Positions 22,376 through 41,024 of a stretch of 64,000 nt of DNA are shown piece after piece (the stretch's first letter is position 1; each line of letters starts with the position of its first letter). A program made the position numbers and the translations under genes. Source of the DNA: a phage; the sequence record PZ809289.1, one strand, 5' to 3'. A model generated the notes under the pieces. That model saw nothing but the letters and a program-made list of their open reading frames with translations. It did not search any database and was not told where the DNA came from.

Positions 22376-22441
22376 TGCTTTAAAAGGGTCTTCAAATACT
22401 ATGATATAATAGACCTATGATTTGAGTTATCTGAGGTAACA

Positions 22442-22999
22442 ATGACCGAAATTAAACTGACTAAAAATAACTATGTAAATAATAAGGAGCTTCTGAAAGC
22501 TATCACCCAATGGAAAACAGAACTCAGAGAAAATACCGATCCTAATAAAATAGTTCGCCAGAACGACGTTATCGGCTTGGCTATTATGCTCATTGCTGAA
22601 GGACTAAGTAAACGTTTCAACTTCTCAGGATATACCCAATCTTGGAAGCAAGAAATGATTGCTGATGGAATCGAAGCTTCGATTAAAGGTCTTCACAACT
22701 TCGACGAAACAAAATACGACAACCCACATGCATATATCACTATGGCTTGTTTTAATGCCTTCGTTCAGCGTATCAAAAAAGAACGTAAAGAAATGGCAAA
22801 GAAATATAGCTACTTCGTCCATAATGTCTATGACAGTAATGATGACGACATGGTAGGTATTGCAGATGAAACCTTTATCCAAGATATCTACGACAAAATG
22901 ACTCAGTATGAAACCTCTTTAACTAAAGCACCAGGGTCTGATAAGAGTGCCGAACCTAAAGTTGGTGAACTGGATTTTTTATATGGAACATCAGATTAA
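22442..22999 (+). CDS. 55: Late-transcription sigma factor gp55
   Basis: ...[91 protein letters not shown]... essentially T4 gp55 (185 aa). Confidence 0.95.
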
Positions 23000-23213
23000 T
23001 ATCACTCCACTTTTAGATGGAATGGAAGACTTCGAAGCACTCCCTTATTTTATTAAATTGATATTACGGGATGTTAAAGGTCTTCCTATTGATATTGACC
23101 CACTTAACGTCAGGAATATTGAATTCACTTCTCCTGACAATAACGTAGATTACCGTTATCATGTTGAGAACGCTAATTTCTACTTCACTATTGAATTGAC
23201 TCCAAAGGATTAA
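22983..23213 (+). CDS. Hypothetical protein (76 aa)
   Basis: ATG overlapping end of gene 55; track start 22947 further upstream. Confidence 0.45.
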
Positions 23214-23214
23214 T

Positions 23215-23526
23215 ATGCAAAGCCATGACATTTCTCAATTGACTGATGAGCAAATTGAAGAAGCCCAGCAACGTTTAGAAGAGCACAATATTAAAGAAGC
23301 TAATTCTCAAGCGGCTAAGATTCTTAAGAAGAATGCTCGTGAAATCCGTCGTTTAAATCTCCATGCCCAAGGCGCTGTACTTGAAAACAACTTTGAAGCA
23401 TATAAGTACGCTTTAATTAAATTACGTGGTATTTACCGTCAACCTGTTACTGATGAACTTGTTCAATTGATGTGGGAATCTACCCGCAAACAAATTTGGG
23501 AAATCGTCAATGGCCCTAGTAAATAA
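23215..23526 (+). CDS. Hypothetical protein (103 aa)
   Basis: RBS AAAGGA. Confidence 0.5.
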   Translation: MQSHDISQLTDEQIEEAQQRLEEHNIKEANSQAAKILKKNAREIRRLNLHAQGAVLENNFEAYKYALIKLRGIYRQPVTDELVQLMWESTRKQIWEIVNGPSK

Positions 23527-23710
23527 ACCCTTTAAACGGCTTCTTATTGGAGCCGCCTTTAGACTTCGCTCATACGGTAATATCTGTATTAAGCAGTCCG
23601 AAACCGAATATAAAATGGTCGGCCAGTATTCCGATGGAATTTTTCGGATTGAGCCCGTAGCCAAGGTTTGGGTAGATTCTCATCAACTTAAGAAATGGTG
23701 GCAACGATGA
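23510..23710 (+). CDS. Hypothetical protein (66 aa)
   Basis: ORF overlapping upstream end; weak RBS. Confidence 0.35.
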   Translation: MALVNKPFKRLLIGAAFRLRSYGNICIKQSETEYKMVGQYSDGIFRIEPVAKVWVDSHQLKKWWQR

Positions 23711-23768
23711 TAACGTGGACAGGCGGCTAATGAAAGACGAATACGAAAAAGTTTAAGAGGTTGTATGA

Positions 23769-23942
23769 ATGACGAATTCGATGGATTTTGATAAGATTAA
23801 ATCTGACAAAAATGAGATGATACTTCAATTTGAAGCCGCTCGTATTAAAGCAGAAAATGAAGGTACTATTACCTATAAGCCTATCAAGTTCAGGTCTAAT
23901 CACGAACCTCTGTACGGTGTATTAGTTGGTAAAGGAGCTTAG
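23769..23942 (+). CDS. Hypothetical small protein (57 aa)
   Basis: RBS AAGAGG; ends inside terminator stem; below track cutoff. Confidence 0.35.
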   Translation: MTNSMDFDKIKSDKNEMILQFEAARIKAENEGTITYKPIKFRSNHEPLYGVLVGKGA

Positions 23943-23953
23943 GCTCCTTTTTT
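23934..23953 (+). terminator. Rho-independent terminator (GGAGC-UUAG-GCUCC-U6)
   Basis: 5-bp GC stem, 4-nt loop, T-run. Confidence 0.7.
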
Positions 23954-23982
23954 GCTTTATATTCGGATGATAAAATAAATCT

Positions 23983-24600
23983 ATGAAATACATCACATAC
24001 CTGACAATATATTCCGGGACTAAGCTTCCACCGTTTTATATAGGGTCTACCACTTTAGAGAAGCATTCAAAAGGATATCACGGGAGTGTCCTTTCTAAAG
24101 CATATAAAGAAATCTATAAAAATGAGCTTTTAGAGCATCCAGAATTATTTGACTCATGTATTGTAAGTGAACACCCTACAAGAGAAGAGGCTTTAGAAGC
24201 TGAAAGAATGTACCAGTTAAGAACGGATGCGGCCCAAAATCCTCTATTCTTTAATAGGGCTGTCGCAGCTCCTAAAGGATTCTTTGGGCTTTCGCTACCT
24301 AAAGAGCAACACCCTCTTTACGGCTCTCATAATGCTAAAGGGTATATTCATTCCTATAATCCTATTACATTAGAACAAACCTTTGCACCTACAGTCCCCG
24401 AAGGATATGTAGAAGGTCGTTCACCTAATTATAAAGCATCTAGTCATAATAAGGGCAGGAAGTGGTATAATAACGGAATAGAACATAAACTGATTAACCC
24501 ATCTAATATTCCTGATGGGTGGGTCAAAGGTAAACTTCCTGGCTCTGCTTCTAAAGCAGCCTCCAAAATGTGGGAACGGATACGTAATGAAAATTCTTAA
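23983..24600 (+). CDS. GIY-YIG homing endonuclease (Seg-like), paralog of 56748
   Basis: MKYITYLTIYSGTKLPPFYIGST GIY-YIG core; NUMOD-like HPLYGSHNAKG; sits where T4 has alpha-gt (between 55 and 47). Confidence 0.75.
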   Translation: MKYITYLTIYSGTKLPPFYIGSTTLEKHSKGYHGSVLSKAYKEIYKNELLEHPELFDSCIVSEHPTREEALEAERMYQLRTDAAQNPLFFNRAVAAPKGFFGLSLPKEQHPLYGSHNAKGYIHSYNPITLEQTFAPTVPEGYVEGRSPNYKASSHNKGRKWYNNGIEHKLINPSNIPDGWVKGKLPGSASKAASKMWERIRNENS

Positions 24601-25609
24601 TACGGGTGACTGGCACCTTGGAGTGAAGAACGACGACCCTTGGGTGCAAAATATTCAATTGGCAGGCATTAAAGACGCCATCAATTATTCTAAAGCAAAT
24701 GGTATCACTGTCTGGATTCAGTATGGTGATATTTTTGATGTTCGTAAAGCAATTACTCATAAGTGCATGGAATTTGCCAGACATATTTCAGATTTGCTTA
24801 AAGAAAATGGCATTACCATGTATACTGTTGTTGGTAACCATGATGCACACTACAAAAATACCTTGACACCGAACGCTGCTTCTGAAGTTCTGGGTAAATA
24901 CGACCATATCAAGGTTATTGAGAAACCTACTACGGTTAATTTTGATGGTACAGAAATTGATTTGATTCCATGGATGTGTGAAGAAAACACGACCGATATC
25001 ATGGACCATATCAAAAATACTACTGCCGATTTCTGTATTGGCCACTGGGAATTAAATGGTTTCTATTTCTATAAAGGAATGAAATCACATGGTTTAGAAC
25101 CTGATTTCCTTAAGAAGTATAAGCAAGTATGGTCTGGTCACTTCCACACCATTTCTGATGCAGCAAACGTCAAGTATATTGGTACGCCATGGACCCTGAC
25201 TGCAGGTGATGAGAACGACCCTCGTGGCTTCTGGATTTTCGATACAGAAACCCATAAAATGGATTTCATCATCAATGAAACTTGTTGGCATCGTAAGATT
25301 CATTATCCGAATGCGACTATCGATTACAAAGATTTTACAAATATTGCGGTTCGTGTTATAGTCGATAAAATTGATGACGGGCTTACCAAGTTCGAATCTG
25401 AACTTGAAAAGGTTGTTCACTCTTTACGTATTGTGTCTAAGGTAGATAACAGTGTTGATATCGATGATTCTGAAGAGGAAGATGAAGTTAAGTCCCTCTT
25501 GGATATGATGTATGATTATATCGATGCCCTTCCTGATGGCCACACTGAAGACGATGTTAAAGCCCTTAAGACTATGGCCGCACAACTTTATAATGAGGTT
25601 ACACGATGA
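24587..25609 (+). CDS. 47: Recombination nuclease subunit gp47 (Mre11/SbcD-like)
   Basis: MKILNTGDWHLGVKNDDPW... calcineurin-like phosphoesterase motifs (GDWHLG, GDIFD, GNHD, GHWE...H); track ORF 24515 begins upstream in frame. Confidence 0.9.
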   Translation: MKILNTGDWHLGVKNDDPWVQNIQLAGIKDAINYSKANGITVWIQYGDIFDVRKAITHKCMEFARHISDLLKENGITMYTVVGNHDAHYKNTLTPNAASEVLGKYDHIKVIEKPTTVNFDGTEIDLIPWMCEENTTDIMDHIKNTTADFCIGHWELNGFYFYKGMKSHGLEPDFLKKYKQVWSGHFHTISDAANVKYIGTPWTLTAGDENDPRGFWIFDTETHKMDFIINETCWHRKIHYPNATIDYKDFTNIAVRVIVDKIDDGLTKFESELEKVVHSLRIVSKVDNSVDIDDSEEEDEVKSLLDMMYDYIDALPDGHTEDDVKALKTMAAQLYNEVTR

Positions 25610-25869
25610 CTTTAGATGAATTCAAAAAATCAGGCCTTGAACTAGAACACGACTGCATCGTTATTGATGACGATAACCAAACGAATATCATTAAGTTCTG
25701 GTTTGAAGCCGTGAGCACTCGCGATACCAACGAGCTTATTAAAGTTTATGTTGCTACTGATTGGGCTGTGGAATTTAGCTTTAATGTAATGGTAGATGAT
25801 ACTCCAGAAACATTAATTCATATGGCTGAATCATGCATCAAGGATGCTTATAATGATGAAAATGTATAA
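25606..25869 (+). CDS. Hypothetical protein (87 aa)
   Basis: ATGA coupling with 47. Confidence 0.5.
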   Translation: MTLDEFKKSGLELEHDCIVIDDDNQTNIIKFWFEAVSTRDTNELIKVYVATDWAVEFSFNVMVDDTPETLIHMAESCIKDAYNDENV

Positions 25870-26068
25870 ACATGATTTTCATATTGGCGATGGCTGGTTC
25901 GGTAATGTAGAATGGGACGTGGATGGTTCTTGGTATACCGGAACTATGTATGTCACTTCTGAATATTCTGAAGGTGTTTCATGGGCCATGGAACTTGACG
26001 ACGTGTTTGCTTCTTCCGAAGAAATGCTAGAATATGCTGAACAAACAATTCGTGAGAACAATACATGA
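25853..26068 (+). CDS. Hypothetical acidic protein (71 aa; track start 25844)
   Basis: RBS AAGGA 9 nt upstream of ATG 25853. Confidence 0.45.
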   Translation: MMKMYKHDFHIGDGWFGNVEWDVDGSWYTGTMYVTSEYSEGVSWAMELDDVFASSEEMLEYAEQTIRENNT

Positions 26069-27747
26069 AAACGTTTAAGTTAAAGAAAGTAACGTATAAA
26101 AATATTATGTCGGTAGGCCAGCAACCTATTACAATCCAACTTGATAAGGTCCAAAAGACCTTAGTCACCGGTAAAAACGGCGCTGGTAAATCTACGTTCC
26201 TTGAAGCCGTTACATTTGCTCTGTTCGGTAAGCCTTTTCGTGATGTTAAGAAAGGGCAGTTGATTAACTCAAGTAATAAGAAAGACCTTTTGGTCGAACT
26301 GTGGATGGAATATGATGGCAAAGAATACTATATCAAGCGCGGGCAAAAACCCAATATTTTTGAAATCTCTTGTGGCGGTGAACGTCTTGATGAATCTGCC
26401 AGCAGTAAAGACTTCCAAGCAGAATTTGAACAGCTTATCGGAATGTCATATACCAGTTTCAAACAGATTGTCGTACTTGGTACAGCAGGGTATACCCCTT
26501 TCATGGGTTTGTCGACCCCTGCGCGCCGAAAGCTTGTGGAAGACCTCTTAGAGGTTTCTGTATTAGCGGATATGGACAAGTTGAACAAATCTTTGATTCG
26601 TGAGACTAATAGCCAAATCCAAGTAATCGACGTTAAACAGGATTCTATTATCCAGCAAATTAAAATTTATAATGACAACGAAGAACGTCAGCGTAAATTA
26701 TCAGGTGAGAACGCAGCACGTCTACAAACAATGTACGATGAGCTCGTTAAAGAAGCCAGGACTGCGAAGGGCAATATAGAAAAACTGACTGATGAATTAC
26801 TCAATGTCATCGTCGATGATGACCCTAGCAACTCTATGAGTGACCTGAGCAATAAAGGATTTGCAATCAAGAATGATATGGCAACCTTTACTAAGGTCGT
26901 GAAATTATACGAAACCGGTGGTAGTTGTCCTACATGTATGCAAGGACTGGAAGAGCATGGAAATATCCTTACTAAAATTAAGGATAAGAACTTTGAGCTT
27001 CAAAAATCTTTGGATAAGATTAACGAACAGTACCAAGAACTCAAGCTCATTAAGGACCAAGTAACCGAACAACGTAATAAAGCTCTGGCTATTAAATCTC
27101 AGATAGCTACTCATAAGCAACAAGCCATTACTGCCGTAGAGAAAGCTAAAAAAGTTAAAGTATTAATCGACCAAGCAGCTGCTGAGTTCGTAAGTAATGC
27201 CGAAGAGATTGCCGCGCTTCAAGCAGAGCTTGATAAAATCGTCTCTACCAAATCGTCCTTGGTAATGGAAAAATACCATCGTGGAATTCTGACAGAAATG
27301 TTGAAGGATACTGGTATTAAAGGTTCCATTATTAAGAAATACATTCCTATCTTTAATAAGCAGATAAATTCTTATTTGAAGATTATGGAAGCGGACTACG
27401 TCTTTACACTAGACGAAGAGTTCAATGAGACGATTAAATCACGTGGACGTGAAGACTTTAGTTATGCTTCATTTTCACAGGGTGAGAAAGCACGTATTGA
27501 TATCGCACTACTTTTTACATGGCGCGATATTGCTTCTAAGGTATCAGGTGTTAATATCAGCACGTTAATTCTTGATGAGGTATTTGACAGTGCTACTGAC
27601 GCTGAAGGCGTTAAGACCATTGCAACCATCTTGAATAGCCTTGAGGATACGAACGTGTTCATTATCTCTCACCGAGACCATGACCCACAAGCTTATGGCC
27701 AACATCTTCAAATGAAGAAAGTTGGACGATTCACGGTGATGGAATGA
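26065..27747 (+). CDS. 46: Recombination ATPase subunit gp46 (Rad50/SbcC-like)
   Basis: 560 aa; Walker A GKNGAGKST, Zn-hook CPTC, signature FSQGEKAR, Walker B LILDE; collinear with T4 gp46. Confidence 0.95.
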   Translation: MKTFKLKKVTYKNIMSVGQQPITIQLDKVQKTLVTGKNGAGKSTFLEAVTFALFGKPFRDVKKGQLINSSNKKDLLVELWMEYDGKEYYIKRGQKPNIFEISCGGERLDESASSKDFQAEFEQLIGMSYTSFKQIVVLGTAGYTPFMGLSTPARRKLVEDLLEVSVLADMDKLNKSLIRETNSQIQVIDVKQDSIIQQIKIYNDNEERQRKLSGENAARLQTMYDELVKEARTAKGNIEKLTDELLNVIVDDDPSNSMSDLSNKGFAIKNDMATFTKVVKLYETGGSCPTCMQGLEEHGNILTKIKDKNFELQKSLDKINEQYQELKLIKDQVTEQRNKALAIKSQIATHKQQAITAVEKAKKVKVLIDQAAAEFVSNAEEIAALQAELDKIVSTKSSLVMEKYHRGILTEMLKDTGIKGSIIKKYIPIFNKQINSYLKIMEADYVFTLDEEFNETIKSRGREDFSYASFSQGEKARIDIALLFTWRDIASKVSGVNISTLILDEVFDSATDAEGVKTIATILNSLEDTNVFIISHRDHDPQAYGQHLQMKKVGRFTVME

Positions 27748-34684: not shown

Positions 34685-34921
34685 ATGGAAGCTTTAATCG
34701 TTAGTGCTGGTGTTTTAGGATTCGGTTCTCTGGTTATTATGTTCATCGGTTACTTTTTACCATGGATTCTGGCTCTTCTGCGAGGCACTCGTAGTAATGT
34801 AGGAATTTTCTTCCTTAATCTCCTGTTAGGCTGGACGATGATTGGTTGGGTAGTGGCTTTAATCTGGGCTATCGTCGCTGAACGTAAATCAAACGCACAA
34901 ATCATTATTGTTAAACAATGA
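34685..34921 (+). CDS. imm: Small inner-membrane protein at the T4 imm position (78 aa)
   Basis: Two transmembrane helices; located directly downstream of 43 as T4 imm is; identity by position and topology. Confidence 0.55.
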   Translation: MEALIVSAGVLGFGSLVIMFIGYFLPWILALLRGTRSNVGIFFLNLLLGWTMIGWVVALIWAIVAERKSNAQIIIVKQ

Positions 34922-35062: not shown

Positions 35063-35563
35063 ATGAAAAAGTTAATTATCGCAATGAGTATGCTCCTATC
35101 AGGTTGCGCGGTCCAATATGGTGATACAGTTTCGGCCGATGAAGTTGGTAAAGCTCGTATCGCAGCTGAACAGAAACAATTCGATGGCGAAATGAAATTC
35201 CGTGCAGGTTCTGGACTTGTGTACACCCGAGCTAATAATCAATGCGGTAATAACTGTGCAAAATATGCTCAACAAGAAATCGAATTCCAACGTGAACAAG
35301 AGTCCAAGCGTGAAGCGGTACTAGCCAAACACCAGGCAGAAATGAAGCGTCAAGATGATTTGTACAAAAAGCAGAAACTGTATGCGATGTGCGTAAACCA
35401 TATCAATCTACAGATTTCCATCCACGAGGCTCGTTATTACGAAATGCTCGAAACCGAGAGCTTCGGTAAAGCTCGTGATTATAAGAAACAAATCGATAAG
35501 CTCAAGACCAAAGTACCGGCGGCAATAGAACAGTGTATTGAAATCGGTAAAGATAAGATTTAA
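35063..35563 (+). CDS. Predicted lipoprotein with coiled-coil (166 aa)
   Basis: Lipobox LLSGC after signal sequence MKKLIIAMSM. Confidence 0.55.
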   Translation: MKKLIIAMSMLLSGCAVQYGDTVSADEVGKARIAAEQKQFDGEMKFRAGSGLVYTRANNQCGNNCAKYAQQEIEFQREQESKREAVLAKHQAEMKRQDDLYKKQKLYAMCVNHINLQISIHEARYYEMLETESFGKARDYKKQIDKLKTKVPAAIEQCIEIGKDKI

Positions 35564-35623: not shown

Positions 35624-37297
35624 ATGAAAAAGGTTGTTATTTTAGGCGCGGGTCTTGGCTCACGGTTGTATCCAATTACCAACGAAATCCCGAAGGTACT
35701 GGTTAACTACAAACAACATACTGTATTAAAACATTTGTATGATTTGTATAGTAATCAATCAGATGAAATTATTCTGGTTATTCACAGCAAATTTAACGAC
35801 CTCGTTAAAGGCTATATTAAATCCATTAACATGATTAATAGTGATAAGCCTAAATTCACTATTCGTAACGTTGATGTTGCCAATGGTTCGGCTCATGCTA
35901 TCGATTGCATTGCTGAAGATATCATTGGGCACAATGTCTTGTTTAACTGGTGTGATATTATTCCTGAAGGTCATAAAGTTGAGTGGGATACCGACTACTG
36001 TTATACCTATGGGACCGACTGTCGTTTTACATTTGAAGAACCGTACTTGCGTGAAATTGGTACCGGTGGTGGCGTAGTTGGCTTGTATCAGGTGGCTAAT
36101 TGGACAGGTTTCGACCGTTCTAATTATGGTGAAGACCTTGCTGACAACCTGGATTCAATGGTCCATTTGACTGAACGTAAGTTAGACTTTGTAGTTGATG
36201 TTGGTGACAAACTGAAACTGGCTAAGGCCCATGAAGATTCTGAAATTAACCGTGAATTTAATAAATTAGAGTTCACTGAGAATCTAGCTATTAAAGTACC
36301 TACAAACGAATTAGGTAAAGAAATCCAATCTAAAGAAATCAATTGGTACAATTCTATTGATTCTGAATTCGTTCCTAGCATTGTAGACTTTGCTCCAGGT
36401 GAATTCATTAAAATGGAACGTATCTTTGGTCGAACCATGGCAGATGCCTACCGGTTTATGTCTAAAGAAACTAAAGTCCTAATGGTTTATAAGGTTATTA
36501 GTGCATTACGTTCGTTCGGTGGAACTATCGATAATCCGTCCGATGAGCAATGGTATTCTGATGTTAAGAAAGAAGTATTGGACAAGGTCCTTATTCGTAA
36601 TGCTTCTATTGCCGGATTGATTGAAGGCTTTGCTCCACAGGGTATTACCCATGTTAACGACTTCAAGGTAGGCGACCCAGAAAAACTTCTTCGTCACGCC
36701 TTAGAAATTCTGTCTGAACATAAAGAACCGTACCAACTTATTCATGGCGACCCGCACTACAGTAATATTATGTTGTCGGACGAAGGTAATATTAAAATCA
36801 TCGACCCACGTGGTTATTTTGGTAATAGTTCTAAAGGCCCTGCGATTTATGATGAAGCTAAGGTGCTTTATTCTATCGATGGTTATGACAAATTTAACTC
36901 TGACCCTCTATGGGGTGGCTTAACTCGTAACGGAACTCGTGTATTCGTTGATATTGAAAAGGTTATGCCTTTAGATGATATTCCGATGTGTACATTTAAG
37001 CACAAGCTCTGGATTGCTGTTATCTGGATGGCATTGGCAGGTTACTTTAAAAATAACCCTCTGAAAGCTCTGGGCGCTTATTACAATGGGCTATATCAAC
37101 TGAGTGTGCTGCTGAAGCGGCATCCTCGTAAGCGTAAGCTTATCACAGGTGAATTCGTTGATGAAGTTCGCGACCCTATCACGGCTCAAATTATCACTCG
37201 TTGTCCTGATAAGTGGGTTTTGCTTGACCAGGAAACTGGTGTAAAATATAAACCTACAGGTTCTACCGAACTCCACAAACAATGGAAGAAAATTTAA
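35624..37297 (+). CDS. Bifunctional sugar-phosphate nucleotidyltransferase / APH-choline-kinase-like kinase fusion (557 aa)
   Basis: N-terminus KVVILGAGLGSRLYPITNEIPKVLV = G-x-G-x-R-x-P...PK NDP-sugar pyrophosphorylase signature; C-terminus HGDPHYSNIM...IIDPRG = Brenner kinase motif; RBS GAGGAA; track ATG 35594 lies inside TATAAT. Confidence 0.65.
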   Translation: MKKVVILGAGLGSRLYPITNEIPKVLVNYKQHTVLKHLYDLYSNQSDEIILVIHSKFNDLVKGYIKSINMINSDKPKFTIRNVDVANGSAHAIDCIAEDIIGHNVLFNWCDIIPEGHKVEWDTDYCYTYGTDCRFTFEEPYLREIGTGGGVVGLYQVANWTGFDRSNYGEDLADNLDSMVHLTERKLDFVVDVGDKLKLAKAHEDSEINREFNKLEFTENLAIKVPTNELGKEIQSKEINWYNSIDSEFVPSIVDFAPGEFIKMERIFGRTMADAYRFMSKETKVLMVYKVISALRSFGGTIDNPSDEQWYSDVKKEVLDKVLIRNASIAGLIEGFAPQGITHVNDFKVGDPEKLLRHALEILSEHKEPYQLIHGDPHYSNIMLSDEGNIKIIDPRGYFGNSSKGPAIYDEAKVLYSIDGYDKFNSDPLWGGLTRNGTRVFVDIEKVMPLDDIPMCTFKHKLWIAVIWMALAGYFKNNPLKALGAYYNGLYQLSVLLKRHPRKRKLITGEFVDEVRDPITAQIITRCPDKWVLLDQETGVKYKPTGSTELHKQWKKI

Positions 37298-37656
37298 TGC
37301 ATCTGTGTTTTGATATCGATAATACCATTACTCACTGGCAAGATGACCGTGATTACGAAAACTTTAAACCGGACACCGAAATGGTGTCCATGATTAATAA
37401 GCTTTATGATGAAGGGTACGAGATTACCTTGTTCACTGCCCGTGGTATGACTTCATGCGGCCCGGGTCGAATCTTGGTTGAAGTAGTTCCTGCATTAGTT
37501 AAGAACCTTGAAAAGATTGGATTGAAATATCACAATCTGCTTACACATAAGCCGAGTTATACTTTTATCATCGATGACCGAGCAATCCGTCCTGACCACT
37601 TTAAAGAAATGGTTCGTGAAGGAACTCTTGAAACCTATAAGGCATATCATCCGTGA
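37297..37656 (+). CDS. HAD-superfamily phosphatase (119 aa)
   Basis: Motif I FDIDNTIT (DxDxT), later T, K and IIDDR motifs; TAATG coupling. Confidence 0.6.
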   Translation: MHLCFDIDNTITHWQDDRDYENFKPDTEMVSMINKLYDEGYEITLFTARGMTSCGPGRILVEVVPALVKNLEKIGLKYHNLLTHKPSYTFIIDDRAIRPDHFKEMVREGTLETYKAYHP

Positions 37657-38189
37657 AACCAAAAATCATTGTTATCGACGGCCCGGATAATTCCGGGAAG
37701 TCTACTTTAATTGAATCACTTTTATCTGATAAGAAATATCGTCTTATTGATTTCCCTAAAAAGATTAATGGCAAATGCATTTCATTAGGGACTGATAATG
37801 ACAAGGCTTTAGTCGAGACGTTGTATAAGTTTTTAGACCCTAATTTTGTCTACATCTTAGACCGTGGGTATCCTAGTAATATTGTTTACTCTGGATTCCT
37901 TCGTGGTGAAATGGACCCTTATGTAGAACTGGAAGATTGGAAAGGGTTTAAATCTGAATTCAATATTATTGAGGTTATTTTAACCCGTAATCCACTGGAT
38001 AAAGACTTTGAAGATGACCTTATTAAATTAACCAAAGACGAGTTCAACCTAACTATCCGGCAATATGAAACATGTTTTGAAAACGTGTTTAAAATCTTAA
38101 ATCACGACGGCCATAATAACTTGCTTAACGTCGATATGGTAGAATTAAAACGTCTGAATGAATATATTGAAAATAAGGTGAATAAATGA
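37653..38189 (+). CDS. P-loop nucleoside/nucleotide kinase-like protein (178 aa)
   Basis: IVIDGPDNSGKSTL Walker A at residues 6-19, dTMP/dNK-kinase-like; GTG start overlapping upstream stop. Confidence 0.6.
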   Translation: MKPKIIVIDGPDNSGKSTLIESLLSDKKYRLIDFPKKINGKCISLGTDNDKALVETLYKFLDPNFVYILDRGYPSNIVYSGFLRGEMDPYVELEDWKGFKSEFNIIEVILTRNPLDKDFEDDLIKLTKDEFNLTIRQYETCFENVFKILNHDGHNNLLNVDMVELKRLNEYIENKVNK

Positions 38190-38884
38190 AACACATTACC
38201 GCTGTTAGTTTTGAAAACGCGTTTAAGCAAATGAACGAAGAAATCCTGGAAGCCCCACAGTTTGCAGTTGATTCTCGTATCGGCCGTTGTTATGAAATTG
38301 GTTCTGCTTCGGTAGAAGTACTGGATGCAAGCACCTATAAATTCACCGACCCTCGTATTAATCGTATCAACTATGATTATGCCGAATCTTTCTGGAAGTT
38401 TATGATTTCTGGTGGTACTGACGCCGCCGAAGCATTTAAGGAATACCCTAATGTTGCTAAGTTCATTGATAAGCCGAAAAGTGACGTATTGCCTGCAAAC
38501 TTCAACACTTTCTATGGACCTAGAATTGTGGCCCAACTCCCAGCCTTACTTAAAGAGCTTAAAGAGAAGCCTAACTCAAGACGAGTTGTGTTCCAAATTC
38601 TCCAAGAACAAGACCAAGCCCTCCTTGATTCTGACGAATCCTTAGAATATCCATGTACTGATTCAGTGACATATTATATTCGTGATGGACGTCTTTATGC
38701 ACATACCCATATGCGTTCACAGAACTGTGCTATTGTTATGCAGCTGGATTTCTATCTGCAGGGTAAACTGATGGCCTTTATTGCTGAACAGTGTGGTGTT
38801 GGTCTGGGTACGTATTCCCATACTATGGTTAGTGCACACGTATTTGAACGTGATTTTGACTACGTTCGAGGATTCCTGAAATGA
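38186..38884 (+). CDS. 42: dCMP hydroxymethylase-like enzyme (thymidylate-synthase fold)
   Basis: NSRRVVFQ..., YPCTDSVTYYIRD (catalytic Cys), HMRSQNCAIVMQLDF (Asp at the cytosine-specifying position) align with T4 gp42 MCTNTVQYLIRD...MRSNDVVFGFRND. Confidence 0.7.
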   Translation: MKHITAVSFENAFKQMNEEILEAPQFAVDSRIGRCYEIGSASVEVLDASTYKFTDPRINRINYDYAESFWKFMISGGTDAAEAFKEYPNVAKFIDKPKSDVLPANFNTFYGPRIVAQLPALLKELKEKPNSRRVVFQILQEQDQALLDSDESLEYPCTDSVTYYIRDGRLYAHTHMRSQNCAIVMQLDFYLQGKLMAFIAEQCGVGLGTYSHTMVSAHVFERDFDYVRGFLK

Positions 38885-39774
38885 GTTTGTTTATCGTTCC
38901 TATTTTCAGTATGCGTAGTTACGAAACAGGTGAATATGCCGTCCTTAAGGACGGCAATTTTCAACTCCATTTAAACCGTGCTTGCCCAGGTGATTATCTG
39001 GCTTATCCTAGAAATTCGAGCGATATCAAAGAATGCATTGAATTATTTCCTGAACTGAATTTTGTACCTCTTTGGTATAAAGAAAATGCTTATGAAACTC
39101 GTAAACATTTTTGGTCTGAAAATGAGTTCGTTGTTGATTCGTTAATCGAATACTATGACTGCTCAGGATTGGTAACCGATATCACAGGTTATGATGGTGC
39201 TCATACCGTACAATTCAACTTTAACATTACAATGGACCCTGAAGTTCCTCGTTATTACATCGATGAGTTTATTGATACCGACGTGGGTTCAGTTGAACGT
39301 TCGATTTATACTACAGTCTTGAATCAATGTCAGAAAGACGTCCTGGTGTCACGAGGTGCGTCCTCTGATAAGATTTTTGTAGACCAAAAGGTAATTAATC
39401 CGGCAGTAATTGAGCGTTACTCTGAAGGTCTAGCGCCTATTAAAATTGATGGTATTTTCCATCCATTCCGTATCTCTGATAAATGTTATCAATTCGAAAG
39501 AGTTGTAGACCAAGCTGCGGCTGAAGGTTCTCGCCTTTATATCACCGATCCGAATGATTCATTTAAGCGTGAAGACTATCGTCCTGATGTAGAGATTATT
39601 AAATTCAAACCGAGTAAGGTTGAATATTATCAGATTCTGAAATCAAGACCTCATATCATTTATCATGAGAATCCCGGTTTAGTATTCCATCCTGGTCTGG
39701 CTGAATTCATTTATTTCGGTGCCCACATCCATTCTGAGCACGAAATGCCAAGTTATGAGGACGTGGTCCTTTAA
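38881..39774 (+). CDS. Unassigned 297-aa protein in the beta-glucosyltransferase slot (candidate DNA-modifying transferase)
   Basis: ATGA coupling to hydroxymethylase gene; lies between 42 and uvsX; no similarity to T4 beta-gt recognised by eye. Confidence 0.5.
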   Translation: MSLFIVPIFSMRSYETGEYAVLKDGNFQLHLNRACPGDYLAYPRNSSDIKECIELFPELNFVPLWYKENAYETRKHFWSENEFVVDSLIEYYDCSGLVTDITGYDGAHTVQFNFNITMDPEVPRYYIDEFIDTDVGSVERSIYTTVLNQCQKDVLVSRGASSDKIFVDQKVINPAVIERYSEGLAPIKIDGIFHPFRISDKCYQFERVVDQAAAEGSRLYITDPNDSFKREDYRPDVEIIKFKPSKVEYYQILKSRPHIIYHENPGLVFHPGLAEFIYFGAHIHSEHEMPSYEDVVL

Positions 39775-39851: not shown

Positions 39852-41024
39852 ATGTCTGATTTAAAATCCCGTTTGATTAAAGCTTCTACTTCTAAAATGA
39901 CCGCCGACCTGACCAAATCTAAATTGTTTAATGGTCGTGACGAAGTTCCTACTCGTATCCCTATGCTGAATATTGCATTGGGCGGTGCGTTGAATGCAGG
40001 CTTACAATCAGGTTTGACAATCTTTGCTGCTCCATCTAAACACTTTAAAACGTTGTTTGGACTTACCATGGTTGCGGCATATATGAAGAAATATCCAGAC
40101 GCAATTTGTTTGTTCTATGACTCTGAGTTTGGTGCTTCAGAATCTTATTTCCGTTCGATGGGTGTTGATTTGGAACGTGTGGTTCATACACCAATCCAGT
40201 CAGTCGAACAGCTTAAAGTTGATATGACCAACCAGTTAGAAGAAATTACTCGTGGCGAAAAGGTTATTATCTTTATCGACTCCATTGGTAACACTGCTTC
40301 TAAGAAAGAAACCGAAGATGCTTTGAACGAGAAAGTTGTAGGTGATATGACCCGTGCTAAGTCACTGAAATCTCTGTTCCGTATCGTAACACCTTATCTG
40401 ACTATCAAAGATATCCCTTGTGTAGCAATCAACCACACGGCTATGGAAATTGGTGGAATGTACCCTAAAGAGATTATGGGTGGTGGTACTGGTATTCTGT
40501 ACTCTGCTTCTACCGTGTTCTTTATCTCTAAACGTCAGGTTAAAGATGGTACTGAGCTCACTGGTTATGACTTCACACTGAAGGCCGAGAAATCTCGTAC
40601 GGTTAAAGAGAAATCAACGTTCCCGATTACAGTGAACTTCGAAGGTGGTATCGACCCATTCAGTGGATTGCTTGAAATGGCTACTGATATTGGCTTTGTC
40701 GTGAAACCTAAAGCTGGCTGGTATAATCGTGCATTCCTTGACGAAACCACAGGCGAAATGGTTCAAGAAGAAAAAGCATGGCGTGCTAAAGCTACCGATT
40801 GTGTCGAGTTCTGGGGACCGCTGTTTAAACATGCCCCGTTCCGTGAAGCAATCGAGAATAAGTATAAGCTCGGTGCAATTAATTCTATTAAAGAAGTTGA
40901 CGATGCAGTGAACGACCTTATTAACTCTCGTGTCTCTAAGAACGTTGCTGTTAAATTAGGTGGTAATGCCCAAAGCGCCGCTGATATCGAAAACGATTTG
41001 GAAGAGATGAATTTAGATGACTGA
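39852..41024 (+). CDS. uvsX: Recombinase UvsX (RecA-like)
   Basis: 390 aa; RecA core with Walker A; collinear with T4 UvsX. Confidence 0.9.
   Translation: MSDLKSRLIKASTSKMTADLTKSKLFNGRDEVPTRIPMLNIALGGALNAGLQSGLTIFAAPSKHFKTLFGLTMVAAYMKKYPDAICLFYDSEFGASESYFRSMGVDLERVVHTPIQSVEQLKVDMTNQLEEITRGEKVIIFIDSIGNTASKKETEDALNEKVVGDMTRAKSLKSLFRIVTPYLTIKDIPCVAINHTAMEIGGMYPKEIMGGGTGILYSASTVFFISKRQVKDGTELTGYDFTLKAEKSRTVKEKSTFPITVNFEGGIDPFSGLLEMATDIGFVVKPKAGWYNRAFLDETTGEMVQEEKAWRAKATDCVEFWGPLFKHAPFREAIENKYKLGAINSIKEVDDAVNDLINSRVSKNVAVKLGGNAQSAADIENDLEEMNLDD

Follow-up and report, generated by a model that had tools for sequence, protein, structure and literature searches.

A Dhakavirus with a GT-B glycosyltransferase in a predicted arabinosyl-5-hydroxycytosine cluster and an unrelated, predicted homing endonuclease gene upstream of gene 47

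Introduction

In phage T4, the glucosyltransferase gene a-gt sits between mobB/a-gt.2 and 47.1, and b-gt lies between 42 and segA/uvsX. An initial annotation of phage record PZ809289.1 found neither gene at these positions and took their absence as independent synteny evidence for a modification other than glucosylation. The locus thus raises three questions: what occupies the two slots, whether the homing endonuclease gene noticed in the first of them has anything to do with the missing a-gt, and what the DNA modification of this phage might be. A non-glucosyl modification in such phages is not a new idea. Petrov et al., 2010 noted that JS98-type phages are without gt genes, and the arabinosyl explanation was extended by synteny in 2026, when Lee et al. 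listed Dhakaviruses among the genera with shared cluster synteny (PMC13326640); in the literature searched, Dhakavirus modification is predicted by synteny only. Here we examine the gene content of both slots in a 64-kb stretch of the PZ809289.1 genome, which we refer to as the window.

Results

The phage and its relatives

The PZ809289.1 phage is a T4-like coliphage of the genus Dhakavirus (JS98/QL01-like). Its closest relative is QL01, with 92–99% identity across the window and 99.8% DNA identity over positions 22400–26100. The window is a mosaic: against the phage record collection, the best matches run from 96 to 99.8% by segment and none is identical. For a whole-genome check of transferases, the complete QL01 genome served as a proxy alongside the window. 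The features discussed below are collected in Table 1.

Table 1. Features of the two gene blocks and their landmarks, in window coordinates.
Feature	Position	Strand	Evidence
Gene 55 (late sigma factor), left landmark	22442..22999	+	ORF; annotated 55 in QL01
a-gt.5 homolog, 76 aa, DUF5491; overlaps the end of gene 55	22983..23213	+	tblastn T4 a-gt.5 E 1.7e-14; Pfam DUF5491; phrog_1169
a-gt.4 homolog, 103 aa, DUF2654	23215..23526	+	tblastn T4 a-gt.4 E 1.5e-20; Pfam DUF2654 4e-23
a-gt.3 homolog, 66 aa	23510..23710	+	tblastn T4 a-gt.3 E 7e-15; phrog_1648
a-gt.2 homolog, 57 aa, DUF5486	23769..23942	+	tblastn T4 a-gt.2 E 1.2e-17; Pfam DUF5486
Intrinsic-terminator-like hairpin, 8-bp stem, 4-nt loop, T run	23931..23950	+	AAAGGAGC-TTAG-GCTCCTTT, then T run
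Possible T4-type middle promoter (inferred from sequence)	23953..23976	+	MotA-box-like TGCTTTA 23953–23959, 11 nt, TAAAAT 23971–23976
Predicted free-standing Seg-like GIY-YIG homing endonuclease gene, 205 aa	23983..24600	+	Fold search; family-level Pfam
Gene 47 (Mre11/SbcD-like)	24587..25609	+	First ~300–400 bp (24600–24900/25000) a sharply bounded divergent tract
Bifunctional sugar-1-phosphate nucleotidyltransferase (N-terminal) and kinase (C-terminal), AfhE-like	35624..37297	+	RB69 gp53+gp52 homolog
Small HAD-type phosphatase, AfhF-like	37282..37656	+	RB69 gp51 homolog, 62% identity, E 2e-55
Thymidylate-kinase-like nucleotide kinase	37653..38189	+	RB69 gp45 homolog, 37% identity, E 5e-30; phrog_761
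Predicted 5-hydroxy-dCMP synthase (thymidylate synthase superfamily), gene 42 position	38186..38884	+	78.8% identity to RB69 gp48
GT-B glycosyltransferase, 297 aa	38881..39774	+	RB69 gp47+gp46 ortholog; fold comparison
uvsX, right landmark	39852..41024	+	QL01 annotation
Gene 56 dCTPase/dUTPase; supplies dCMP, depletes dCTP	46280..46801	+	QL01 annotation mapped onto window

Neither slot holds a T4-type glucosyltransferase

In agreement with the initial annotation, a tblastn search of the window with T4 a-gt found nothing similar between genes 55 and 47 (best E 0.019, located elsewhere). Across the window and the complete QL01 genome, the best tblastn result for T4 a-gt and b-gt was a 36-residue match at chance level (E 0.019–0.068), and phmmer --max searches of the same two proteins against all ORFs of at least 50 aa gave best E values of 0.22 and 0.53. 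When RB69 gp3, gp50 and gp55 were searched alongside the T4 proteins by phmmer --max, nothing fell below E 0.09 in the window or QL01; apart from the 36-residue T4 a-gt match (E 0.068), tblastn with these five proteins gave no result at E ≤ 0.1. The whole-genome check that the initial annotation had called for therefore yielded no a-gt or b-gt homolog in the window and its QL01 proxy. The RefSeq annotation of QL01 contains no gene named glycosyltransferase, its rIIA.1–39 interval holds two small ORFs only, and ORFs of uncertain function in the nrdC region (186–339 aa), together with QL01 gp122, have no sugar-related Pfam or PHROG match. Four ORFs of 280–336 aa without an assigned function might still encode a cryptic transferase recognisable by its fold.

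The interval between genes 55 and 47 holds four small ORFs rather than the three first counted. These a-gt.5, a-gt.4, a-gt.3 and a-gt.2 genes are homologs of the like-named genes of T4 and RB69. The predicted terminator also proved to be present, as a hairpin that encloses the a-gt.2 stop codon and is conserved in all 12 Dhakavirus alleles compared. Just downstream is a promoter-like motif whose TGCTTTA element we take to fit the MotA-box consensus; its TGCTTT core is conserved in all alleles compared, and a promoter is annotated at the equivalent place in the record of phage Lutter. Between a-gt.2 and gene 47, the a-gt slot contains only the terminator, this promoter-like motif and the endonuclease gene.

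A predicted GIY-YIG homing endonuclease gene overlaps gene 47

As the initial annotation had stated, the stop of the 205-aa ORF overlaps the gene 47 ATG; the overlap is 14 nt. Assignment of this ORF to the GIY-YIG family needed a fold search because sequence probes and profiles were weak or negative: the protein alone scores below threshold against Pfam GIY-YIG (E 0.056), T4 segA and mobB used as tblastn probes against the window did not match it (segA matches other ORFs), and its family profile, run against PDB sequences, gave no more than a weak match to the I-TevI DNA-binding domain (E 0.041). The fold search matched the GIY-YIG catalytic fold, and Pfam support is present at the level of the family. 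Across 40 homologs down to 34% identity, residues Y6, Y10, Y19-I20-G21, E74 and N91 never vary and R67 seldom does; an arginine at the position of I-TevI R27 has no evident equivalent in the 205-aa sequence. At least 10 phages carry an intact copy of the ORF, at 84–99% identity. The putative -10 element ends 6 nt upstream of its start codon, for which no Shine-Dalgarno sequence is obvious. The HNH label that RefSeq and PHROG (phrog_10820) give this ORF was rejected; the protein does not qualify as HNH, and the fold search contradicts the label. We propose that this free-standing ORF in the 47.1 slot encodes a Seg-like GIY-YIG homing endonuclease, the activity being predicted from these features.

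Comparison of 12 Dhakavirus loci that are 92–100% identical outside the variable tract revealed four allele classes at this one site: the 205-aa endonuclease, a 251/284-aa endonuclease variant whose C-terminus differs from that of the 205-aa form, a 5-codon remnant or nothing, and 47.1. The window and WG01 are 100% identical on both flanks, and their divergence, to 76–87%, is confined to the initial 300 bp of gene 47; over the same 300 bp, the window and Bp7 share 61–70% identity. In 11 of the 12 genomes, endonuclease type and gene 47 5' haplotype go together, the exception being MX01, which has the 'endonuclease' haplotype without the endonuclease. Bp7 retains a deletion remnant at the site, and we therefore conclude that gain and loss are ongoing. 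As a whole, the allele series is tidy but conventional homing-endonuclease mosaicism. We suggest that the endonuclease would spread by cleaving alleles that lack it, with the cut probably falling within the 5' part of gene 47, and that repair would then copy the endonuclease gene together with ~300–400 bp of adjoining gene 47.

It is also conceivable, if unlikely, that the 205-aa ORF has decayed or been domesticated and survives as a relic, such as a DNA-binding regulator of gene 47 expression. The sub-threshold Pfam score, the lack of a clear Arg27 counterpart, the start codon context and the break in haplotype linkage in MX01 would all suit a relic, but a relic is harder to reconcile with invariant putative catalytic-fold residues (Y6, Y10, Y19, G21, E74, N91) in such divergent homologs, with an ORF kept intact in so many phages, with the sharp, allele-linked mosaic boundary in gene 47 and with the turnover that the Bp7 remnant records.

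Whichever its present activity, the endonuclease is unrelated to the absence of a-gt. The initial annotation had placed it there "instead" of a-gt, and the wider comparison does not bear out that word: the Tequatrovirus Lutter carries a-gt plus a 61%-identical endonuclease homolog directly upstream of gene 47, the 55–47 interval of T4 contains both a-gt and another homing endonuclease gene, mobB, and the Dhakaviruses WG01, Bp7 and AnYang, as well as RB69, have neither a-gt nor endonuclease. Klebsiella phage HMGUkp2 has an endonuclease homolog at the same site. We also rejected the idea that insertion of the endonuclease deleted a-gt, since endonuclease-free relatives carry 47.1 or nothing at the site, never a-gt.

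The b-gt slot belongs to an RB69-like modification cluster

Five consecutive window genes are homologs of RB69 gp52:53, gp51, gp45, gp48 and gp46:47, at 37–79% identity. They lie between imm and uvsX as one block, which is preceded by a lipoprotein-like ORF (35063–35563). The AfhE-like protein is colinear with RB69 gp53 and gp52 (44% and 41% identity, respectively) as one chain, with Pfam matches to NTP_transferase (2.4e-8, residues 3–100) and APH (8.8e-6, residues 346–417). The small phosphatase has a DIDNT motif and weak Pfam HAD matches; the RefSeq label of its gene, 'phosphoheptose isomerase', is a mislabel.

The thymidylate-synthase homolog matches PDB entries 9iqu/9iqc/9ir2 with E 1.5e-125 and is only 25% identical to T4 gp42. 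It also matches Pfam Thymidylat_synt (4.8e-14), and Cys157, the catalytic Cys of the PC motif, is invariant in the alignment. Both this protein and RB69 gp48 carry the D169N and N177D substitutions (E. coli ThyA numbering; RSQN...QLD), which are absent from T4 gp42 (RSND...RND) and from QL01 td (RSVD...PFN). D169N predicts 5hodCMP synthases and N177D corresponds to cytosine specificity (PMC13326640). The product of this gene is thus a predicted 5-hydroxy-dCMP synthase, with flavin/O2 hydroxylation suggested by homology. Given the D169N signature and the 79% identity to RB69 gp48, an experimentally verified enzyme, the decorated base is most likely 5-hydroxycytosine, not hydroxymethylcytosine.

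The ORF in the b-gt slot, between the synthase homolog and uvsX, lies where the initial annotation placed it; the ORF had been left unassigned there and can now be identified. It is colinear over its full length with RB69 gp47 and gp46 (70% and 64% identity) and belongs to phrog_3891 (E 8e-159). Its gene overlaps that of the synthase by 4 nt (38884/38881), and 353 phage records, among them those of Mosigvirus, Acinetobacter phages and Serratia 92A1, have an ortholog adjoining the synthase gene; in many phage records, the neighbour at the tblastn match carries the annotation 'thymidylate synthase'. The 297-aa sequence has no match among Pfam or PDB sequences and was resolved only by orthology to RB69 and by fold comparison. 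It is a GT-B glycosyltransferase, an ortholog of RB69 gp46:47 and of the DLP3 gp79-type 'arabinosyltransferase 1', and is predicted to transfer arabinose from UDP-Araf to 5-hydroxycytosine. In RB69 and DLP3, too, the arabinosyltransferase 1 activity is so far a proposal, and Lee et al. found single transferases to be without activity on 5hoC DNA (PMC13326640). An HMM search for paralogs of this transferase family found none in QL01 or the window. Homologs of RB69 gp3, gp50, gp55 and gp49 are likewise missing from the window and the complete QL01 genome by tblastn and phmmer, so that neither contains a homolog of the arabinose-5-phosphate isomerase (gp55).

Discussion

The DNA modification of this phage is very probably not glucosylation, and the cluster at 35624–39774 is stronger evidence for this than the gaps in synteny. 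The conclusion of the initial annotation holds, although the grounds shift: the endonuclease is irrelevant to it, and the b-gt slot is filled by a DNA-modifying transferase of another family. The glycosyltransferase hit that was to count against a non-glucosyl reading was, in spirit, found in the 297-aa ORF, and "non-glucosyl" nevertheless stands. An arabinosyl-5-hydroxycytosine cluster, with the endonuclease as an unrelated mobile gene, is in our judgment very probably the best joint explanation of the two loci.

We propose that the cluster is a reduced version of the arabinosyl-5-hydroxycytosine pathway of RB69, DLP3 and HY126, with each step assigned by homology. In this pathway, gp56 would make dCMP, which the thymidylate-synthase homolog would convert to 5-hydroxy-dCMP using flavin and O2. 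Kinases would then raise 5-hydroxy-dCMP to the triphosphate, and the phage polymerase would insert the product in place of C. In parallel, the AfhE-like enzyme and the HAD phosphatase may convert arabinose-5-phosphate to UDP-arabinofuranose, from which the GT-B enzyme would place arabinose on the 5-OH. E. coli makes arabinose-5-phosphate through KdsD/GutQ, and these host isomerases would have to supply it here because there is no phage isomerase. With one transferase only and no RB69 gp3 homolog, the product is predicted to be mono-arabinosyl-5-hydroxycytosine.

It is improbable that the cluster decorates 5-hydroxycytosine with another sugar, or with arabinose in another form or linkage. The cluster of Dhakaviruses is a reduced one, its AfhE-like protein is the more distant homolog noted above, and no isomerase, gp50 or gp49 homolog accompanies it; moreover, the 5hoC of RL38J1 carries hexoses, and Lee et al. 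expect further sugar combinations (PMC13326640). Against this, the phosphatase (62%) and the transferase (64–70%) are close to the RB69 enzymes, the activating enzyme keeps its two-domain architecture, and KdsD/GutQ furnish arabinose-5-phosphate in E. coli. That the endonuclease displaced a-gt, with the 297-aa ORF an unrelated unknown in the b-gt slot and no DNA glycosyltransferase present (leaving plain hmC or a non-sugar modification), is very improbable: the failure to detect a-gt or b-gt and the lack of any Pfam or PDB sequence match to the 297-aa ORF would fit, but that ORF encodes a GT-B ortholog of RB69 gp46:47, a-gt is also missing from RB69 and from Dhakaviruses without the endonuclease, Lutter has a-gt and an endonuclease homolog, and the gene found at the site as the alternative allele is 47.1 (47 aa) rather than a-gt.

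Returning to the arabinosyl pathway, a broader reading is quite possible, though we rate it slightly short of an even chance. Dhakaviruses may have the smallest arabinosyl-5-hydroxycytosine pathway among the comparisons made (one transferase, no phage isomerase, no gp50/gp49), in which host arabinose-5-phosphate would yield 5-hydroxycytosine that is mono-arabinosylated throughout, or the sugar might even be a different one; and the two endonuclease variants, which would have a catalytic domain in common but distinct C-terminal DNA-binding parts, and each of which goes with its own gene 47 5' haplotype, may amount to a natural experiment in Seg-type nuclease retargeting. If mono-arabinosylation is true, it bears on the restriction, CRISPR and glycosylase defences that Dhakavirus therapy candidates evade.

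The value of the finding is mainly one of correction, public annotations of key Dhakavirus genes being wrong. The labels in use are 'hypothetical protein', 'phosphoheptose isomerase', 'thymidylate synthase' and 'HNH endonuclease'.

Among known systems, the 205-aa ORF most readily compares with the T4 Seg proteins (SegA–G) and I-TevI, with which it shares an N-terminal GIY-YIG fold and, across its family, C-terminal NUMOD3 or I-TevI-like DNA-binding elements. Like the T4 seg genes, it is intergenic, free-standing and overlaps a downstream essential gene; it is also sporadic among close relatives, and the adjacent divergent tract is consistent with co-conversion or target immunity. It is not, however, a close homolog of any T4 Seg protein.

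The 297-aa enzyme has no detectable sequence similarity to T4 a-gt or b-gt (tblastn, phmmer) and is ~100 and ~50 residues shorter than alpha-GT (400 aa) and beta-GT (351 aa), respectively. Its acceptor is predicted to be 5-hydroxycytosine rather than hydroxymethylcytosine, and its donor a phage-made UDP-arabinofuranose, whereas T4 uses host UDP-glucose.

Far closer is RB69 (gp45–gp55 and gp3, with equivalent Afh genes in HY126; Thomas et al., 2018, PMC6024577; Lee et al., 2026, PMC13326640). The window has homologs of its gp45 kinase, gp46:47 GT-B enzyme, gp48, gp51 and gp52:53 in the same neighbourhood between DNA polymerase/imm and uvsX; both phages are without a-gt and b-gt, and both have the gene order 55, a-gt.5–.2, 47. 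The two differ in that the gp55 isomerase, gp50, gp49 and gp3, the second, beta-arabinosyltransferase (PDB 9iqz is a homolog), have no counterpart in the window or QL01, in that the window's kinase gene lies between those of the phosphatase and the synthase while that of RB69 is next to uvsX, and in the lipoprotein-like ORF before the window's block. Mono-arabinosylation is predicted for the window, as against di-arabinosylation in RB69. In this last respect a parallel may be the Shewanella phage Thanatos, distant in host and phage lineage, which, as cited in PMC13326640, has one transferase of the gp46:47/gp79 synteny type as its single arabinosyltransferase and mono-arabinosylated cytosine in its DNA.

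Results

By megablast, positions 22400-26100 are 99.8% identical to Escherichia phage QL01 (Straboviridae, Tevenvirinae, Dhakavirus) and 92-98% identical to other JS98-like phages. Nucleotide comparison with phage records found none that matches the whole window; against QL01 its identity is 92-99% block by block, with several insertions in the window, and complete-genome checks were run on QL01 as a proxy for the window phage. About 730 bp at 2261-2990 have no counterpart in QL01, where the flanks are contiguous.

Coordinates of features in the window and the matches supporting them
Feature	Position	Match or property
SegA-like ORF, 245 aa	6661-7398	T4 segA (tblastn E 2e-13); NUMOD3 (E 4e-13)
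nrdC-region ORF, 297 aa	15200-16093	DUF7235/phrog_2351
nrdC-region ORF, 336 aa	16151-17161	phrog_1435
a-gt.5 homolog	22983-23213	tblastn, T4 and RB69 proteins
gene 55	end 22999	
a-gt.4 homolog	23215-23526	tblastn, T4 and RB69 proteins
a-gt.3 homolog	23510-23710	tblastn, T4 and RB69 proteins
a-gt.2 homolog	23769-23942	tblastn, T4 and RB69 proteins
terminator-like hairpin	23931-23950	terminator scan
205-aa endonuclease ORF	23983-24600	14-nt overlap with gene 47
gene 47	start 24587	MKILNTGDWHLG...
ORF, 192 aa	29132-29710	NUMOD3; phrog_314 'homing endonuclease'
imm	34685-34921	
ORF, 166 aa	35063-35563	phrog_1754
nucleotidyltransferase/kinase (AfhE-like)	35624-37297	RB69 gp53 and gp52 (44%, 41%); Pfam NTP_transferase and APH
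HAD phosphatase	37282-37656	RB69 gp51 (62%); HAD motif DIDNT
kinase	37653-38189	RB69 gp45 (37%)
synthase	38186-38884	RB69 gp48 (79%)
297-aa ORF	38881-39774	RB69 gp47 and gp46 (70%, 64%)
uvsX	39852-41024	
ORF, 226 aa	56748-57428	NUMOD3; end inside gene 39 start (57421)

The initial annotation described three small ORFs, a terminator and a GIY-YIG homing endonuclease gene, and no a-gt, between genes 55 and 47. There are in fact four small ORFs, with tblastn E-values of 1e-14 to 1e-23 and Pfam matches to DUF5491, DUF2654 and DUF5486. The terminator is borne out by a hairpin kept in all compared relatives, the endonuclease stop does overlap the gene 47 start, and T4 a-gt has no significant tblastn match anywhere in the window. 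Downstream of the hairpin lies TGCTTTA, 11 nt, TAAAAT, a putative promoter resembling the T4 middle (MotA-dependent) consensus.

RefSeq and PHROGs label the 205-aa ORF 'HNH endonuclease', and Pfam gives it only a sub-threshold GIY-YIG match (E 0.056). We collected 250 homologs and aligned 40, in which Y6, Y10, G12, Y19-I20-G21, E74 and N91 are invariant; Pfam finds NUMOD3 in 26 of the 40, GIY-YIG in nine and HNH in none. Taken together with the AlphaFold model (pLDDT 87; N-terminal domain 90-98), these residues and matches show that the GIY-YIG assignment is right and the HNH label wrong.

The endonuclease does not, as had been proposed, sit there instead of a-gt. T4 has the order a-gt.2, mobB (an HNH homing endonuclease), a-gt, 47.1, 47, and in Tequatrovirus Lutter a-gt precedes a homolog, 61% identical to the 205-aa protein, that lies directly upstream of gene 47, so that both phages carry an endonuclease and a-gt, whereas RB69 (55, a-gt.5 to a-gt.2, 47) carries neither. 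A 67%-identical homolog also lies directly upstream of gene 47 in Klebsiella phage HMGUkp2. Within Dhakavirus, the stretch that separates the terminator from the gene 47 start codon takes four forms: the 205-aa endonuclease (window, QL01, IME08, NC-G); a variant of 251 aa (vB_EcoM_005, 1984-2739 of its locus) or 284 aa (KIT01, from 1983 of its locus); a first-five-codon remnant (Bp7) or nothing (AnYang); and the 47-aa gene 47.1 (WG01, C6, MX01, IME341). These forms, with the Lutter and HMGUkp2 homologs, indicate an endonuclease family that would target the gene 47 upstream site regardless of glucosyltransferase status.

The window and WG01 are 100% identical at 22400 to ~23960 and at 24900-26100, but over the initial 300 bp of gene 47 their identity drops to 76-87% (61-70% against Bp7). 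In the 12 genomes compared, three haplotypes occur in the 5' part of gene 47, the first travelling with the 205-aa endonuclease, the second with the long variant and the Bp7 remnant, and the third with the empty AnYang allele and the 47.1 alleles of WG01, C6 and IME341; the sole exception is MX01, the fourth 47.1 genome, which combines 47.1 with haplotype 1. This pattern is as expected if an endonuclease gene had been copied along with neighbouring target sequence that resists cleavage. For T4 SegF and SegG, marker exclusion and co-conversion of the Seg type are established. The 251- and 284-aa variants match the window's protein over the first ~165 residues, differ at the C-terminus and are linked to the second haplotype, which suggests that a DNA-binding module was exchanged together with its target sequence.

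The 64-kb window holds four homing endonuclease candidates, compared with none reported for JS98 and JS10 (Petrov et al., 2010). Genes 45 and 44 flank the 192-aa ORF, which probably encodes a further free-standing homing endonuclease and lies within a ~600-bp segment absent from QL01; the SegA-like ORF lies within a ~870-bp segment replacing ~135 bp of QL01, and the 226-aa ORF, with weak segA similarity, within a ~870-bp segment not common to QL01. Elsewhere, the two adjacent nrdC-region ORFs each match phrog_26858 weakly and so may be distant paralogs.

Between imm and uvsX lie six ORFs, the cluster members among them identified with RB69 proteins as probes. The 166-aa ORF in the gap between imm and the cluster is lipoprotein-like, with the signal sequence MKKLIIAMSMLLSGC....

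The synthase matches PDB 9iqu/9iqc/9ir2 (E 1.5e-125), deposited as 'thymidylate synthase'; because the neighbouring accession 9iqz is titled 'phage HY126 glycosyltransferase', we infer that all three are HY126 enzymes from the work of He et al. The window's synthase shares only 25% identity with T4 gp42, and alignment with RB69 gp48, T4 gp42 and td (the phage's thymidylate synthase) shows that its motif RSQN...QLD places Asn at ThyA-169 and Asp at ThyA-177, where T4 gp42 carries Asp/Asp and td Asp/Asn. According to Lee et al. (2026; PMC13326640), D169N predicts 5-hydroxy-dCMP synthases, N177D confers cytosine specificity, and RB69 gp48 makes 5-hydroxy-dCMP experimentally. Given this homology and signature, the base made is most likely 5-hydroxycytosine rather than hydroxymethylcytosine.

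An ORF of 297 aa does occupy the beta-gt slot, but it need not stay unassigned. Its RB69 homologs, genes 46 and 47, are a single gene that a sequencing error divides in two in the database record (PMC13326640). Searching Pfam and PDB sequences with the 297-aa ORF gave no match; an AlphaFold model (56 homologs) reached pLDDT 95.1 and pTM 0.89. A total of 353 phage records contain an ortholog, usually adjoining a 'thymidylate synthase', among them Mosigvirus (~67%) and Acinetobacter phages (~50%), and a protein-database search added a homolog from Serratia 92A1 at 45% identity. Orthology to RB69 gp46:47 and the synthase neighbourhood identify this ORF as the Dhakavirus counterpart of the enzyme proposed to act as first arabinosyltransferase, with activity predicted. 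Several QL01 RefSeq names are misleading: 'hypothetical protein' is used for both the transferase and the AfhE-like enzyme, the phosphatase is 'phosphoheptose isomerase', the synthase 'thymidylate synthase' and the GIY-YIG protein 'HNH endonuclease'.

Searches by tblastn and phmmer --max found no homologs of T4 a-gt or b-gt in the window or the complete QL01 genome, and none there of RB69 gp3 (the second arabinosyltransferase; PDB 9iqz), gp55 (arabinose-5-phosphate isomerase), gp50 or gp49. A family HMM search gave no paralog of the 297-aa transferase, and the QL01 rIIA.1-39 interval, the position of gp3 in RB69, contains only two small ORFs.

Discussion

With no homologs of gp3, gp55, gp50 and gp49 found in the window or QL01, the Dhakavirus cluster is a reduced version of that of RB69. 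In E. coli, KdsD and GutQ are a source of arabinose-5-phosphate. Because the isomerase is absent from the phage, arabinose-5-phosphate would have to be supplied by these host enzymes.

The initial annotation's conclusion, a non-glucosyl modification, is correct: no a-gt or b-gt homolog was found and an RB69-type cluster is present. Two of its details were wrong, and the matter was already explained. RB69 and JS98 were found to encode 42 and 56 homologs without glucosyltransferase genes, and whether they bear some other modification was at that time not known (Petrov et al., 2010); arabinose was later reported in RB69 DNA, with the genes placed between polymerase and uvsX (Thomas et al., 2018; PMC6024577), and Lee et al. 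(2026; PMC13326640) showed sugar linkage through 5-hydroxycytosine and listed Dhakaviruses among genera with a syntenic cluster. The literature searched contained no chemical analysis of Dhakavirus DNA.

What lies beyond that explanation is modest: the endonuclease allele series at gene 47, and a reduced, isomerase-less cluster with a single transferase. That single transferase predicts a mono-arabinosylated product, four unassigned ORFs of 280-336 aa lying outside the structure prediction. Phage Thanatos, cited by Lee et al. (PMC13326640), offers a parallel to the mono-arabinosylation predicted for Dhakavirus.
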